Assembly (NCBI GenBank): GCA_963804165.1
Contig: CAWDPO010000016.1
Coordinates: 114,284-178,283, forward strand
Direction: 5' to 3'
Length of the DNA stretch: 64,000 bases
From: an uncultured delta proteobacterium
GTDB lineage: Bacteria; Desulfobacterota; Binatia; UBA9968
This document shows positions 40,112 to 58,860 of the stretch, piece after piece. Position 1 is the stretch's first letter. Each line of letters begins with the position of its first letter. The translations under genes were made by a program, and so were the position numbers. The notes under the pieces are model-generated. The model did not search any database and was not told the origin of the DNA. It saw only the letters and a program-made list of their open reading frames with translations.

Positions 40112-40319
40112 GGATCTTCGCCTCCCGGACTGTTCTGAGTTCCAATATTCGGTCTATTGTGAGAAGGTAGCTCAGACGTTTTCACACGCTCGCCGAAATC
40201 CCCCTCGATCCTCATTTTCCCAAGGGGCACAGCAAGACCATTCAGCGATTTTGGTAGCATGGTATCACCCGTCTTCGAAAGAAGAGGGGCAGGCGAGAAT
40301 GCGGCGCGGTGAATCAATC

Positions 40320-40338
40320 TTGATACACCCCGTATCAA
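40320..40338. promoter_or_regulatory. Perfect dyad, candidate enhancer for the array promoter
   Basis: TTGATAC-ACCCC-GTATCAA about 105-125 bp upstream of the -24 element; degenerate similar site near 40251-40268. Confidence 0.6.
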
Positions 40339-40442
40339 AACGGCTACACATGCCTCATGCTTTGGTTCCGGCGCTCGACCGGTGACGGCGAAAATTGCTC
40401 GTGAATTCCAATCTCTAGGTTGAGCTGCGGAGAAAAGGACTG

Positions 40443-40458
40443 TGGCACTGTTCCTGCT
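40443..40458 (+). promoter_or_regulatory. Sigma54 promoter at the head of the binding-protein array
   Basis: TGGCAC-TGTTC-CTGCT with exact GG-N10-GC spacing; GGAGG RBS and ATG follow within 45 bp. Confidence 0.75.
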
Positions 40459-40502
40459 CCTCAATCGACGCGGCTCAGTGCAGGTTTTCAATCGGAGGAA
40501 AC

Positions 40503-41489
40503 ATGTTTAAAGAATTCGCCGCAGTCGTCGTTATCACGGGGATTTTGACTGCGGTGAATCTCGCTCAGGCGCAGCAGCCAACGAAAATCCCCCGGATAGG
40601 ATACCTAGATGGCTGTCTCCCTTTCCGTTAACTCGGCCCGCATCGAGGCATTCCGGCAGGGTCTGCGCGAGCTTGGGTACGTGGAGGGGAAAAACATTGT
40701 CATTGAGTGGCGATCTGCAGAGGGAAAACTCGATCGCCTCCCCGCGCTCGCGGCCGAGCTAGTGCGTCTCAAGGTAGACGTCATCGTCACGGGTGGTCCG
40801 ACAGCAACCCGTGCCGCCAAGGAAGCAACTGTCTACGATTCCCATTGTCATGGCGCAGGATACCGATCCTGTTGGCAACGGGTTCGTCGCCAGCCTTGCG
40901 CGACCTGGCGGGAACATCACTGGATTGTCCACCCTTGCCCCGGAGCTAAGCGGAAAACAACTGGAGCTTCTGAAGGAGATCGTTCCTAAGCTCTCCCGCG
41001 TGGCCGTCTTCGGGACTTCGACCATCCCGGGCAACGCGCAATCGTTAAGAGAGATGGAACTCGCCGCAGGGGCGTTCAAGGTGCAGCTTCAATACCTAGA
41101 CGTACTAGATCCCAAGGATATTGAGACCGCATTCCGAGCCGCAAGCAAGGGGCGTGCTGACGCAGTCCTCGTGCTGGCGGGCCCCGTCTTCGATTCTCAG
41201 TCGAACACAGATTGTCGAACTCGCGGTAAAGAGCCGGCTCCCGGCGATATACAGCAGGTCAGAATATGTGGAAGACGGGGGCTTATGACCTACGGCGTGA
41301 GCTTGACCGACTTGTACCGGCGCGCCGCTACGTATGTGGACAAGATTCTGAAAGGCGCTAAGCCCGCCGATCTTCCGGTGGAGCAGCCGACAGAAGTTCG
41401 AGTTCATCATCAATCTGAAAGCGGCGAAGCAGATCGGCCTGACGATTCCGCCGAATGTGCTGGCGCGGGCGGACAAAGTGATCAAGTGA
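40503..41489 (+). CDS. ABC_sub_bind-type substrate-binding protein, array copy a (frameshifted)
   Basis: [98 protein letters not shown]. Confidence 0.88.
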
Positions 41490-41564
41490 CATGAGGATGC
41501 AGAGATGTCAGAGTATCGGAGTGATGGAAACGGATCAACGCATGAATGCAAAGCATTGCATCGA

Positions 41565-42580
41565 ATGAAAAAATCCTTTGCTTTCCGCGTCGATACTCAG
41601 CATCCAATGCAAACTGGCTGGCCATTGCTCTGTTGCGCTTTGCGTGTTCCTGCCGAGGCGCAGCAGCCAGGGAAAATCTTCCGCATAGGTTTCCTGGATC
41701 CAAGCACTGCTTCCGGTAGCGCGGTCCTCGTGGAGGCGTTCCGGCAAGAGCTGAGCAAGCTTGGCTGGATCGAGGGAAAGAATATCACCATCGAGTACCG
41801 GTTTGCCGAGCAAAAGCATGAGCGCCTGCCTGAGCTTGCGGCGGAGTTGGTTCGTCTAAAGGTTGATCTGATTGTGGTCGCAGGGACGCCACGGCGTTGG
41901 CGGCCAAGAAAGCAACTACTACCATCCCCATCGTGATGGCGAACGTTGGGGACCCAGTAGGCTGCAGGTTTGGTTGCCAGTCTGGCGCGGCCGGGAGGCA
42001 ATGTCACCGGGCTCTCGAGTTTAGGACCGAGCTAAATACCAAAAGGCTAGAGATACTCAAGGACGCGGTCCCCAAGCTCGCCCGAGTTGGACTTCTGCGG
42101 CCGCCGGGAGCCAGCATAGGACAAGACCTCCAACTGAAAGAGCTCAGGCCTGCGGCTCTGGCATTGAAGCTAAAATTGGAGGAGATCGAGACTCAACTCG
42201 ACGCCAAAGGTTTAGAGAGCGCCTTTCAAACCGCAAAGCAGAAGCAGGTCGACGCGATTATGACGACCGCCACTCGCCCCTTTTTCGCCGAAAGAAAGCG
42301 GATCGTCGAGCTTGCCGGCAAATACCGGTTGCCGGCTATTTACTCCCAGAAGGAGTATGTCGATGAGGGCGGTCTCATGTCCTATGGGGCGGACTACGAT
42401 GACCTCTATCGGCGCGCGGCTGTTTACGTGGACAAGATCTTGAAAGGTGCCAAACCGGCTGATTTGCCGGTGCAGCAGGCAACGAAGTTTGAATTCATCA
42501 TCAACCTCAAGGCGGCAAAACAGATCGGTCTGACAATTCCAGTCCGCGTGCTCGAGCGGGCGAATCAAGTGATCAAGTGA
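41565..42580 (+). CDS. ABC_sub_bind-type substrate-binding protein, copy b (frameshifted; start uncertain)
   Basis: AEAQQPGKIFRIGFLD ... GGLMSYGADY ... [20 protein letters not shown]. Confidence 0.88.
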
Positions 42581-57143: not shown

Positions 57144-57193
57144 CAAGAAGGCAACAGGCAACAGGGCTTCGGAGTCGGCGTGCCGATCCTCAG

Positions 57194-57544
57194 CTACCCG
57201 ACAAACCCGTCTACCGGGATCAAACGCTTGGCGACGGGATCGACTGCAAGGAAAAGACTTTCAAGAGCCACGGCGCCGAGCAGCGCAGGACCGTCGGGCG
57301 CAATGAAGCATGGAGTCGTAATTTCATCGCCGTTCAGAGCCAACCGCGCTTCGGCTACGGGCCATACGTCTCGCTGTCCGCCAGCGATCACGACGCGTTG
57401 AGACCGTGCGGGCTTGAGCTCAAGCCTTTCCGCCAGCGATCGGGGCACCACGCTCAGAGTAGCGCCGGTGTCCACAAGAAGCTCAACTTCTTCGACACGT
57501 CCCGTCGGACCGCTCAGGCGTCCCTTTACGTGAAAAAGTCCCAT
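57194..57544 (-). CDS. Retropepsin-like (clan AA) aspartyl protease
   Basis: ELLVDTGATLSVVP and ALLGAVALESL; possible own promoter TTGCGT-N16-TACAAT at 57572-57599. Confidence 0.85.
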   Translation of the reverse strand: MGLFHVKGRLSGPTGRVEEVELLVDTGATLSVVPRSLAERLELKPARSQRVVIAGGQRDVWPVAEARLALNGDEITTPCFIAPDGPALLGAVALESLFLAVDPVAKRLIPVDGFVG

Positions 57545-57684
57545 CGCAAATGCCTTCTCAAAAGCACGGCCATTGTAGCTCAGCCGACAAACAACGCAAC
57601 AACAACGATCAGTCAAAAGAAGGATAGATGGAACTCGGAGCAAAATGTCTTCGATGTCGGTTTCTAGTTGCCGATGAGCGAATT

Positions 57685-57711
57685 GCGCGGGCGGATAAAG
57701 TCATTAAATGA
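57685..57711 (+). pseudogene. Orphan 3'-end remnant of an array paralog
   Basis: GCGCGGGCGGATAAAGTCATTAAATGA = ARADKVIK*, followed directly by a CAGTGAG heptamer leader. Confidence 0.8.
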
Positions 57712-57764
57712 CAGTGAGCGGTGAGCAGTAAGCAGTGAGCAGCAAAAAACCGGGAGCAAAACGG

Positions 57765-58757
57765 ATGATCAAACAAATTCTTTTCTGCCTACTGCTAACT
57801 GTCTTTCTGTTTACTGTTTTTTCTGCAGAGGCGCAGCAGCCAACGAAAGTAGCACGGATAGGCTATCTAGTGGCGGGCGATCCAGCTGGTGAGTCCGCCC
57901 GCGCTGAGGCCATTCGGCTGAATCTGCGCGAGCTTGGCCACGTGGAAGGACAGAACATCGCCAGCGAGTACCGATATTCGCATGGGAAAAACGATCGAGC
58001 TTCTGAGCTTGCTGCCGAGCTAGTACGTCTCAGGGTTGATGTCATTGTGGTAGCAGGAGGAGACCCGTGGATTCGGGCGGCCAAGAACGCGACCAAAACA
58101 ATTCCCATCGTTATGGTGGGCGTTGGGGGCGATCCCGTCGAGGCAGGCCTGGTGGAGAGCCTTGCCCGTCCCGGCGGCAACGTCACCGGCATTACAAACC
58201 TTGGCCCAGAACTAGGTGGGAAGCGGCTGGAACTGCTAAAAGAAGCGGTTACCAAACTTGCCCGTGTCGCGGTTCTCTACGATCCGGCTAGTCCGGGCAC
58301 GGCACGTGAGATGAAAGAGCTTCTCCCAGTCGCGGCCCGTGGGCTGGGGTTGACCCTTCAGACTTGGGATGTACGAGCTGCGGACGGTTTCGAGAAGGTA
58401 TTCGCTGCGCTGAGTAAGGAGCGCCCGGATGGACTCTATGTGCTCTCCGGCCCGCTAGTGCGTGCTAACGGAAAACGGATCGCGGATCTTGCGTTAAAGA
58501 GTCGGCTACCGTCGATGTACGCCATAAGAGAGTCTGTAGATACCGGCGGGCTCATGTACTACGGGGCGGACGTCGCGGACAGCTACCGGCGCGTCGCCTA
58601 TTTCGTTGACAAGATCCTGAAAGGCGCAAAACCGGCTGACCTGCCCGTCGAGCAGCCGACAAAGTTTGAGTTCATCATCAATCTCAAGACAGCCAAGCAG
58701 ATCGGTCTGACGATTCCGCAAAGGGTGTTGGGGCGGGCAGACAAGGTCATCAAGTAA
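57765..58757 (+). CDS. ABC_sub_bind-type substrate-binding protein, copy p (intact)
   Basis: [35 protein letters not shown] ... PQRVLGRADKVIK. Confidence 0.94.
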   Translation: MIKQILFCLLLTVFLFTVFSAEAQQPTKVARIGYLVAGDPAGESARAEAIRLNLRELGHVEGQNIASEYRYSHGKNDRASELAAELVRLRVDVIVVAGGDPWIRAAKNATKTIPIVMVGVGGDPVEAGLVESLARPGGNVTGITNLGPELGGKRLELLKEAVTKLARVAVLYDPASPGTAREMKELLPVAARGLGLTLQTWDVRAADGFEKVFAALSKERPDGLYVLSGPLVRANGKRIADLALKSRLPSMYAIRESVDTGGLMYYGADVADSYRRVAYFVDKILKGAKPADLPVEQPTKFEFIINLKTAKQIGLTIPQRVLGRADKVIK

Positions 58758-58860
58758 TTTTGGATTTTCGATTTTAGATTTTGGATTGAAGCGCAGGAGA
58801 ATAATTCTATGATTCGATTTCCTTCCGAGAATCCAAAATCGGCAATCCAAAATCCAAAAT
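58757..58860. repeat. ATTTTGG/CCAAAAT heptamer inverted repeat enclosing RBS and ATG (same type at 42588-42683, 44822-44966, 46970-47095)
   Basis: ATTTTGG ATTTTCG ATTTTAG ATTTTGG ATT ... AGGAG ... ATG ... AATCCAA AATCGGC AATCCAA AATCCAA AAT. Confidence 0.9.

Follow-up and report, generated by a model that had tools for sequence, protein, structure and literature searches.

The stretch of DNA analysed here (the window; 64,000 nucleotides, nt) covers positions 114284-178283 of contig C16 in the genome of an uncultured delta proteobacterium (G000), and runs up to the end of this 178-kb contig. The G000 assembly comprises 7.5 Mb in 46 contigs, with a completeness of 81% and a contamination of 5%. 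The window carries a tandem array of genes of the PF04392 (ABC_sub_bind) family of putative solute-binding proteins, set in a variable island of ~18.9 kb. Using the intact copy at 57735-58757 (unit 14) as a tblastn query, we mapped 12 full-length, co-oriented units of ~1 kb each in the window, of which nine are consecutive at 40503-50164 and three more lie within 55153-58757, together with one N-terminal fragment and three 3'-end remnants. This confirms the inventory of an earlier reading made from the DNA letters without database searches (the sequence-only reading), which had counted 12 full-length units and one truncated unit in the same orientation, nine of them consecutive, and three 3' remnants. 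The units had there been taken as genes; their full length and common orientation hold, but only three of the 12 (units 12, 13 and 14) have open reading frames (ORFs) under translation table 11, and all nine consecutive units are frameshifted. The island and its units are as follows.

39903-58757, + strand: variable island of ~18.9 kb, present here and missing between the same flanking genes in the relative G037
40503-41486, + strand: PF04392 unit 1, clade of units 3 and 8, frameshifted (tblastn frames 3/1/2/3; 4 frameshifting indels relative to C18:35009)
41625-42577, + strand: PF04392 unit 2, clade of unit 5, frameshifted (93% DNA identity and dN/dS 0.28 relative to unit 5)
42686-43652, + strand: PF04392 unit 3, frameshifted (6 frameshifting indels, 1 in-frame stop)
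43891-44818, + strand: PF04392 unit 4, clade of units 7, 9, 12 and 14, frameshifted (6 frameshifting indels; 90% identity to unit 9)
45009-45927, + strand: PF04392 unit 5, frameshifted (7 frameshifting indels)
45951-46964, + strand: PF04392 unit 6, divergent, broken (nearest paralogue ~70%)
47110-48074, + strand: PF04392 unit 7, frameshifted (7 frameshifting indels)
48189-49112, + strand: PF04392 unit 8, frameshifted (6 frameshifting indels, 1 in-frame stop)
49157-50164, + strand: PF04392 unit 9, nearly open (a single 1-nt deletion near the 3' end, at ~50053)
50925-50984, + strand: 3'-end remnant of the unit 2/5 clade (tblastn residues 321-340; 90% identity to the ends of units 2 and 5)
51026-51412, + strand: N-terminal unit fragment (signal peptide read from sequence, and PF04392 positions 14-95, E 2.9e-12)
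54973-55029, + strand: 3'-end remnant (translation agrees with the C-terminal motif of the family)
55153-56109, + strand: PF04392 unit 12, open, signal peptide read from sequence (E 5.3e-43)
56151-57143, + strand: PF04392 unit 13, open, divergent (E 3.5e-45; nearest paralogue 71%)
57670-57711, + strand: 3'-end remnant (from its translation)
57735-58757, + strand: PF04392 unit 14, open, signal peptide read from sequence (E 4e-42; PDB relatives 3lkv, 3lft and 6hni)

Units 12-14 match PF04392 with E values of 4e-42 to 3.5e-45 (145-155 bits, with a curated cut-off of 25.9 bits) and cover profile positions 19-293. Unit 9, whose ORF at 49214-50089 corresponds to positions 19-260, and the N-terminal fragment also score as members of the family. 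The solved relatives found by sequence are 3lkv (E 1.2e-30), 3lft (E 1.5e-27) and 6hni (E 1.7e-20). The units differ mutually by 7-35% and include three sub-clades that are interleaved along the array and not adjacent, as the sequence-only reading had observed: units 1/3/8 (~86% identity), units 2/5 (93%, DNA) and units 4/7/9/12/14 (78-90%). Hydrophobic N-terminal leaders ending in AEA before QQP were recognised by reading the translations, and on this reading a Sec-type signal peptide would direct the export of the proteins. Conservation is by far the highest in the last 50 residues, with an entropy of 0.8-1.0 bits compared with 2.2-2.5 bits at residues 181-250 (80 copies), a pattern that would fit a shared docking surface or a fold constraint equally well.

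Aligned to their nearest intact paralogues, the nine consecutive units contain ~45 frameshifting indels and two in-frame stops. The indels are almost all single-base and lie outside homopolymers; a homopolymer cause was rejected, since the sequence contexts are not homopolymeric. Genome-wide, 47 broken units show 187 frameshifting events, with insertions about as frequent as deletions (101 and 86), against 16 in-frame stops. The breaks could be genuine, in which case the nine units would be pseudogenes and the island a decaying array of redundant young duplicates with three working genes, or they could be consensus errors of long-read metagenome assembly. We regard consensus error as the likely origin of most breaks in the nine units, and pseudogene decay as a rather unlikely one. 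Selection on the broken copies is one point of difference. Measured against the nearest open copy, broken units (n=46) have a median dN/dS of 0.262 and open units (n=65) one of 0.254, and the broken sisters 2/5 and 4/9 give 0.28 and 0.27 between themselves. When changes are assigned to the own branch of each unit through an outgroup, the nine window units have accumulated 73 nonsynonymous and 166 synonymous changes (N/S 0.44), compared with 0.44 for all broken units, 0.43 for open controls and 2.85 for the neutral case, obtained from random changes on unit 14. No period of neutral drift is therefore detectable, and as 45 real indels would normally come with several hundred neutral substitutions, errors are the favoured explanation. 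Judged by these substitution patterns, the units are under purifying selection and are, or until very recently were, working binding proteins.

The assembly itself is prone to indels. In the window, the second hydantoinase B gene (34821-36607) is split by a 1-nt deletion at 35147 relative to G037, so that its ORF begins only at position 101 of the 519-position profile, and the metallo-beta-lactamase-fold gene (39024-39860) has indels at 39606 and 39685 relative to the same genome; G037 shows gene splits of its own at places that are open in the window. These frameshifts in unique genes point to indel errors in both assemblies. Several G000 contig ends overlap (C2:1-9812 with C9:147858-157681, C41:1-6201 with C5:1-6144, the end of C37 with the start of C38, C21 with C22, and C20 with C25); the overlapping ends are 95.7-98.9% identical, and a gap opens every 100-400 nt (84 in 9.9 kb for C2/C9, 44 in 6.2 kb for C41/C5 and 38 in 4.5 kb for C37/C38). 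Either a single locus was assembled redundantly or the ends are error-rich and come from strain variants; their gap density matches the indel density in the array, ~0.46%. We also compared 79 public loci with relatives of unit 14, labelled long-read-like or short-read-like solely from the contig names in their record titles, counting full-length units clear of the locus edge. Broken units make up 13 of 39 (33%) at the 18 long-read-like loci and 7 of 98 (7%) at the 61 short-read-like loci, thus about five times fewer (Fisher p 2.5e-4), and the central match alone is broken in 8 of 21 and 3 of 55 cases, respectively (p 0.001). The in-frame state is found in three public metagenomes at sites including 40831, 41276, 41391, 44056, 44674, 45113, 45175, 48904 and 50052; among the 12 indel-site entries listed from public metagenome contigs (at least 95% match), 11 fall in 40.8-50.1 kb.

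Several observations weigh against errors as the whole explanation, beginning with the labels of the public loci, which have no other source than the names. The frameshifts are clustered: among full-length units genome-wide, 72 have none, six have one and 29 have three or more, and the stretch of 7 kb after the nine broken units, still within the island, is clean. Errors at a uniform rate would not produce such clustering, which perhaps comes from a poorly supported consensus inside arrays of similar units. Decay would account for the fact that each unit is broken one to seven times and that the breaks concentrate in members of the three youngest clusters. Units of other assemblies have two 1-nt deletions in common with the window, G003 one of unit 5 and G018 one of units 2 and 5, which favours real inherited lesions at least there. 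In G007, a genome of 190 contigs and likely short-read, 58 matches include seven split pairs and seven one-stop matches; such split or stopped units in likely short-read genomes indicate that some real pseudogenes exist in the family. Truncations and 3' scars are also real, and fragments occur at a similar rate among short-read-like (13 of 56) and long-read-like (6 of 24) flanking units. Against decay of the nine units stand the unrelaxed selection on their own branches, the low dN/dS of broken sisters, the small number of nonsense codons beside 45 frameshifts, the near balance of insertions and deletions across all 47 broken units, the proneness of the assembly to indels, and the rarity of breaks in short-read-like assemblies.

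The array is one part of a much larger family. G000 has 156 PF04392 matches, which a hidden Markov model (HMM) that we built from 80 full-length copies sorts into 153 units, 72 of them open, 47 full-length but broken and 34 fragments; the list contains some assembly duplicates (C37/C38, C5/C41) and a small number of short units put into the wrong class. The units form at least 10 co-oriented arrays (on C6, with ~30 units, C38, C37, C16, C5, C7, C14, C19 and others), many of which sit at contig ends. With a distance cut-off of 24%, 116 full-length units fall into 78 clusters, only 10 of which have more than one member; most units of the big arrays are thus old and diverged. The window array is unusual in that it derives mostly from the three largest young clusters, whose members occur on at least seven contigs. 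The family is present in all 18 same-genus genomes searched (4-142 first-look candidates each), whereas none of seven genomes of a sister family has candidates and 120 other genomes spread over the phylum have 0-16 first-look candidates each. The same-genus tallies take in one unpublished genome (G005), on which no claim depends. Public relatives of unit 14 come from metagenome-assembled genomes (MAGs) labelled Syntrophobacter sp., Syntrophobacteraceae and deltaproteobacterium, and less plausibly Binatia or Blastocatellia. The sequence-only reading had proposed to count the family against its permeases; G000 has 156 matches and five PF02653 loci. The window array is not a special locus, being one of at least 10 in a genus-wide family expansion. 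No published description of this PF04392 expansion was found in the literature searched by family name and taxon, supplements excluded.

Public sequencing runs contain many pieces of these units. Contigs from three public DNA runs and one RNA run match the stretch in the thousands, mainly short and on conserved unit parts; the longest listed piece covers 512 nt and none of those listed covers an entire unit. Joints, whose sides measured 20-34 letters, were left out of account. Some RNA-run contigs match the locus without any difference, for example at 55760-55910, which is not proof of transcription. Between 40400 and 50300, thousands of short contigs at least 95% alike come from soil, hydrocarbon and other metagenomes (runs X1-X3, several studies), and in these runs the unique flanking genes are matched at much lower depth than the conserved unit parts. 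The PF04392 family seems to be abundant in such habitats.

Contig C16 carries none of the 90 ATPase (PF00005) and none of the 11 permease (PF02653) matches of the genome, PF00528-type permeases not having been searched, and the statement of the sequence-only reading that the 64 kb contain no ABC permease or ATPase is upheld. In G000 the 11 PF02653 matches are grouped in five loci, and the two examined are LivHMGF-type operons with a Peripla_BP_6 binder. Two genomes of the genus that are 99% complete gave further permeases: G014 has five permease pairs, and G038 has three pairs and one single permease. The latter belongs to a canonical operon (locus L105, G038:C19:19001-31000, genes at 2611-9434, minus strand) that encodes a 661-residue double PF04392 binder, a STAS protein, one permease, one ATPase and a GAF-SpoIIE-HATPase_c_2 protein; its partner-switching genes suggest that this ABC module may signal besides importing. 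The G038-type single permease is present in five of the 31 genus genomes (G038, G018, G017, G011 and G015). It was not found in G000 (E<=1e-40, in an assembly that is 81% complete), nor in the near-complete G014, G008, G006 and G007. Since the canonical permease occurs in only five of the 31 genus genomes, the expansion appears to be independent of the usual translocator of the family. By gene content, the window binders are genetic orphans, the canonical permease and ATPase being missing from G000 and from most genus genomes; the incompleteness of G000 counts against this assignment, since a partner might be unassembled.

Comparison with relatives shows that the array varies. In G037, contig C3 is collinear with the window at 30784-39897 (86-91% identity) and at 58910-63847 (80-84%), and between these flanks it has only ~200 nt and no PF04392 gene. 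The 18.9-kb block is therefore either an insertion here or a deletion in G037. Its left junction is the stop codon of the metallo-beta-lactamase-fold gene, and its right junction is the stop codon of unit 14, just before a (GATTTTG)n spacer; in both G000 and G037 the right junction is followed by a (GATTTTG)n...(CAAAATC)n spacer and then an NMT1-type binder gene. G003 has only two units upstream of the same molybdoenzyme gene, and contig C17 of G018 has a 33-unit array whose units are 84-94% identical to those of the window but stand in a different order, except for a two-unit block collinear with units 2-3 (90%). The sequence-only reading had set beforehand that identical order and content in related genomes would speak against a changing array, and the order is not identical, with the block missing in G037, two units in G003 and a reordered array in G018.

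These comparisons also bear on whether the array is a mis-assembly, in which dispersed copies were wrongly joined or a chimeric path was taken through the repeat graph. Arrays lie at many contig ends and these ends overlap with many differences, as would be expected of such an artefact, and the highest share of the sampled words of the stretch in any single public run is 0.28. However, comparable tandem arrays are found in G018 and G003, the block of units 2-3 is collinear with G018, and the 61 short-read-like public loci also show arrays, with flanking units beside the central match. The units are moreover not collapsible repeats, because they differ by 7-35%. Mis-assembly is in our view quite improbable.

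Other genes interrupt the array after its ninth unit.

50213-50800, - strand: type II toxin-antitoxin pair (PemK/MazF-like toxin at 50213-50557, ribbon-helix-helix antitoxin at 50558-50800)
51557-53890, + strand: molybdopterin-binding aldehyde oxidase/xanthine dehydrogenase-type subunit (Pfam)
53976-54959, + strand: BNR/Sortilin-repeat protein (Pfam)
57194-57643, - strand: retropepsin-like aspartyl protease, inserted in the array (Pfam Asp_protease_2, E 4.1e-11)

The toxin (PemK_toxin, E 1.7e-20) and antitoxin (RHH_1, E 7.3e-5) genes abut at 50557/50558, and the related array of G018:C17 contains the pair with 94% DNA identity. G003 (contig C19) likewise has the molybdoenzyme and BNR genes together, 95% and 94% identical to those of the window and with other PF04392 units on their flanks. 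In the window these two genes stand between the fragment (51026) and one remnant (54973); the remnant at 50925 comes after the toxin-antitoxin pair and the one at 57670 after the protease gene. As the fragment and remnants adjoin inserted genes, they may be scars left where genes inserted into units. The array has hydantoinase, molybdoenzyme and Rieske genes as neighbours. The window also has four NMT1/THI5-type binder genes and one SBP_bac_1-type binder gene (36831-37829, 37919-38848, 58809-59825, 60105-61121 and 62774-63847), likewise without permease or ATPase genes on contig C16; orphan binders here go beyond PF04392. A palindromic element with the core CTCTTTGGCAAAGAGGG stands in inverted orientation at 39974, near the island, and at 59863, behind the first NMT1-type gene; with 29 genomic copies, it resembles a REP (repetitive extragenic palindromic) or MITE-like (miniature inverted-repeat transposable element) repeat.

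The boundaries between units have a distinctive structure. Most stop codons are directly followed by a short period-7 tandem array, and a complementary heptamer array occurs 40-70 nt beyond, at the leader of the next gene. The heptamer pairs are of the types ATTTTGG/AATCCAA, CAGTGAG/TTTACTG and TTTCGAT/AAATCGA, and complementary pairs are present at ~10 of 13 unit boundaries when the reading of the spacers is combined with Tandem Repeats Finder (TRF). One boundary may serve as an example.

46972-47094, + strand: boundary spacer, with an ATTTTGG array at 46972-47002 after the stop codon and an AATCCAA array at 47064-47094 at the next start (TRF)

This spacer folds with a 19-bp core stem (z -3.44). 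TRF gives further complementary pairs at 42591/42653, 56110/56180, 57712/57790 and 58757/58830, in spacers that extend over 42591-42683, 56110-56218, 57712-57819 and 58757-58860, and the sequence suggests additional pairs at ~44823, 49116 and 55040. For six spacers the fold is a long, imperfect hairpin (z -1.0 to -3.4); the boundary hairpins are ~110-140 nt long and their arms co-vary between spacers. Strong ungapped stems occur at 18% of 114 binder-gene starts, compared with 2% of 300 controls and none of 342 shuffles. The overall folding energy is not different from that of controls (mean z -0.55 for 45 binder starts and -0.47 for 45 control starts, p 0.26, mononucleotide shuffles). Across the genome, complementarity was found for 37 of 56 pairs of adjacent period-7 arrays, where chance would give 8.7%. 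These 37 pairs, 15-150 nt apart, include 13 at PF04392 units; the other 24 are mainly of the GGTTCAA/TTGAACC type, the commonest, which has no link to secreted proteins, whereas the AAAATCC/G and CAGTGAG types stand at binding-protein gene starts. Rfam gives no match in the window.

We regard the heptamer pairs as putative REP-like repeats, a class of their own in this genome with an enrichment in the arrays; the hairpins might stabilise transcripts, couple translation or aid recombination. Palindromes of the REP/BIME type (BIME, bacterial interspersed mosaic element) are found within operons, for example in malE-malF and hisJ-hisQ of E. coli. Like them, the window spacers are short hairpin repeats placed right after the stop codon of a binding-protein gene, within a string of co-oriented genes, and belong to a genome-wide repeat family. 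They differ in that their arms are tandem heptamers in 3-5 copies, which vary in sequence yet stay complementary, and in that one arm, the second, extends into the leader of the gene that follows. Phase variation by slippage of the leader heptamers was set aside, the repeats being imperfect (66-88% matches) and one arm lying outside the gene.

The sequence-only reading had placed the array near integrons and antigenic-variation systems, with a head promoter, units bounded by their conserved ends and repeat leaders in place of attC sites, and a recombinase, if any, outside the window. An integron-like system would move single units by a site-specific recombinase acting at the boundary hairpins. 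The array has much that recalls chromosomal (super)integrons: co-oriented ~1-kb units with short spacers, imperfect palindromes with co-varying arms, an embedded toxin-antitoxin pair and variable content. The right junction of the island also falls exactly at a heptamer spacer, and the same spacer type precedes the unrelated NMT1-type binder gene. The machinery, however, does not appear. None of the 21 tyrosine recombinase (PF00589) matches of the genome is on C16, and those in the arrays of C5, C18 and C23 are Xer-like, with 156-164 bits against the 265-bit TIGR02249 cut-off for integron integrases. The recombinases tested on C5 and C23 each adjoin an IS91-family transposase, while C18:37263-38153 is a recombinase gene alone. 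The pairs of recombinase and IS91 genes are multi-copy and lie beside young-cluster units at C5:2903-4929 and at C23:251782-253875 and 259673-261766. Judged by these features, the recombinases of the three contigs are insertion sequences that landed in arrays; the pairs might mobilise neighbouring units, and none is present on C16.

An attC site is an imperfect palindrome of the form R''/L''...L'/R' with RYYYAAC and GTTRRRY cores. The core pair RYYYAAC...GTTRRRY, in this consensus form, is absent from 39801-59000 on the + strand. The following gene contains the second hairpin arm, in its 5' leader or in the part that codes for the signal peptide; most complementary heptamer pairs of the genome are away from PF04392 genes, and the big arrays consist mostly of old singletons whose divergence from every other unit exceeds 24%. 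The units are also paralogues of one family, where integron cassettes are unrelated to each other. The head promoter was not borne out, with five promoter-like sites where shuffles led us to expect 7.2, and the promoter and terminator scans both gave fewer sites than shuffles. We consider an integron-like system very improbable. As to a diversity-generating retroelement (DGR), the search suggested along with that for integrons gave three reverse transcriptase (RVT_1) matches, on C9, C12 and C17 only; the locus has no reverse transcriptase and no near-identical repeat with the window units.

Silent-cassette gene conversion, in which broken copies would rewrite an expressed copy as in antigenic variation, could draw on the run of non-open copies upstream of open ones and on conserved gene ends that could prime conversion. 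The broken copies are nevertheless of full length with leaders of their own, and their breaks are probably errors. No tract of at least 96% identity over at least 60 nt is common to the window units and any other copy, the nearest neighbour shifts only slightly between thirds of the gene, and a home-made four-gamete test of the pairwise homoplasy index (PHI) type with 8-28 sequences gave p values of 0.10-0.48, a test of low power because incompatibility is near saturation. We hold this explanation to be extremely improbable. An integron-like or antigenic-variation-like mechanism is thus not supported, and neither is the idea of a recombination-driven array of that kind, while the description as a library of periplasmic binders with conserved ends and repeat leaders stands in a loose sense. 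A further proposal, which we also find improbable, does without intI and attC: binder genes of at least two unrelated families (PF04392 and NMT1-type) would have been multiplied from stop codon to stop codon by recombination at the heptamer hairpins. It draws on the co-varying arms, the spacer before the NMT1-type gene, the end of the island at a spacer and the occurrence of the three young types on at least seven contigs.

On balance, though with reservations, we favour birth-and-death evolution of an orphan binding-protein family over an integron-like cassette machine. The locus would be one tandem array in a lineage-specific expansion of secreted PF04392 solute-binding proteins, which would gain and lose members through ordinary duplication and deletion and through homologous recombination, ectopic or unequal. 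The toxin-antitoxin pair, the molybdoenzyme and BNR genes and the aspartyl protease would have inserted into the array, leaving 3' scars and one fragment. The array sits in a variable island, and its units would have been kept under purifying selection. As for function, many binders with diversified pockets may capture different small solutes and hand them, or a signal, through a conserved surface to a few shared membrane partners, as has been proposed for the Bug proteins of Bordetella. This model of shared partners and diversified ligands is argued from analogy and is a weak point of the overall interpretation.

Bug proteins, the TctC-type binders of tripartite tricarboxylate transporters, offer the closest parallel that we discuss. 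According to the review PMC5812351, B. pertussis has 76-79 Bug homologues and two tctAB sets, and the genes often lie beside catabolic operons; this review and PMC11452294 describe orphan Bug/TctC binders as over-represented in Bordetella and Cupriavidus. Both systems combine many paralogous binders with few or no cognate membrane components nearby, and in G000 this means ~120 full-length units, five unrelated LivHM-type loci and no cognate permease found. The families differ (PF03401 for Bug, the ABC-type PF04392 here), and so do the phyla. The long co-oriented tandem arrays, with up to ~30 units in G000, are another difference, as we know of no such arrays of bug genes. By its genes, the window presents a Bug-like phenomenon in another protein family. 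The canonical PF04392 ABC systems (3LKV, 3LFT and 6HNI) belong by sequence to the same fold family as the window units (E 1e-30 to 2e-20), but they are encoded with one PF02653 permease and one ATPase, and the window units are not. The ligands of solved PF04392 members given in Table 1 of PMC10443332 are aromatic amino acids.

If this interpretation is correct, uncultured soil and sediment bacteria devote more than 100 genes to one family of periplasmic binders without its usual transporter. For genome scans, the locus is a warning that paralogue arrays in long-read metagenome assemblies can resemble pseudogene graveyards or silent cassettes, and a branch-specific N/S count is a cheap discriminator between consensus errors and decay. 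The finding would also sharpen the question raised by the Bug proteins, namely what orphan binders dock to and why they are so numerous, and would supply a second, independent family in which to test it. With only aromatic amino acids known as ligands, the ligand range of the PF04392 family is perhaps much wider than has been supposed.

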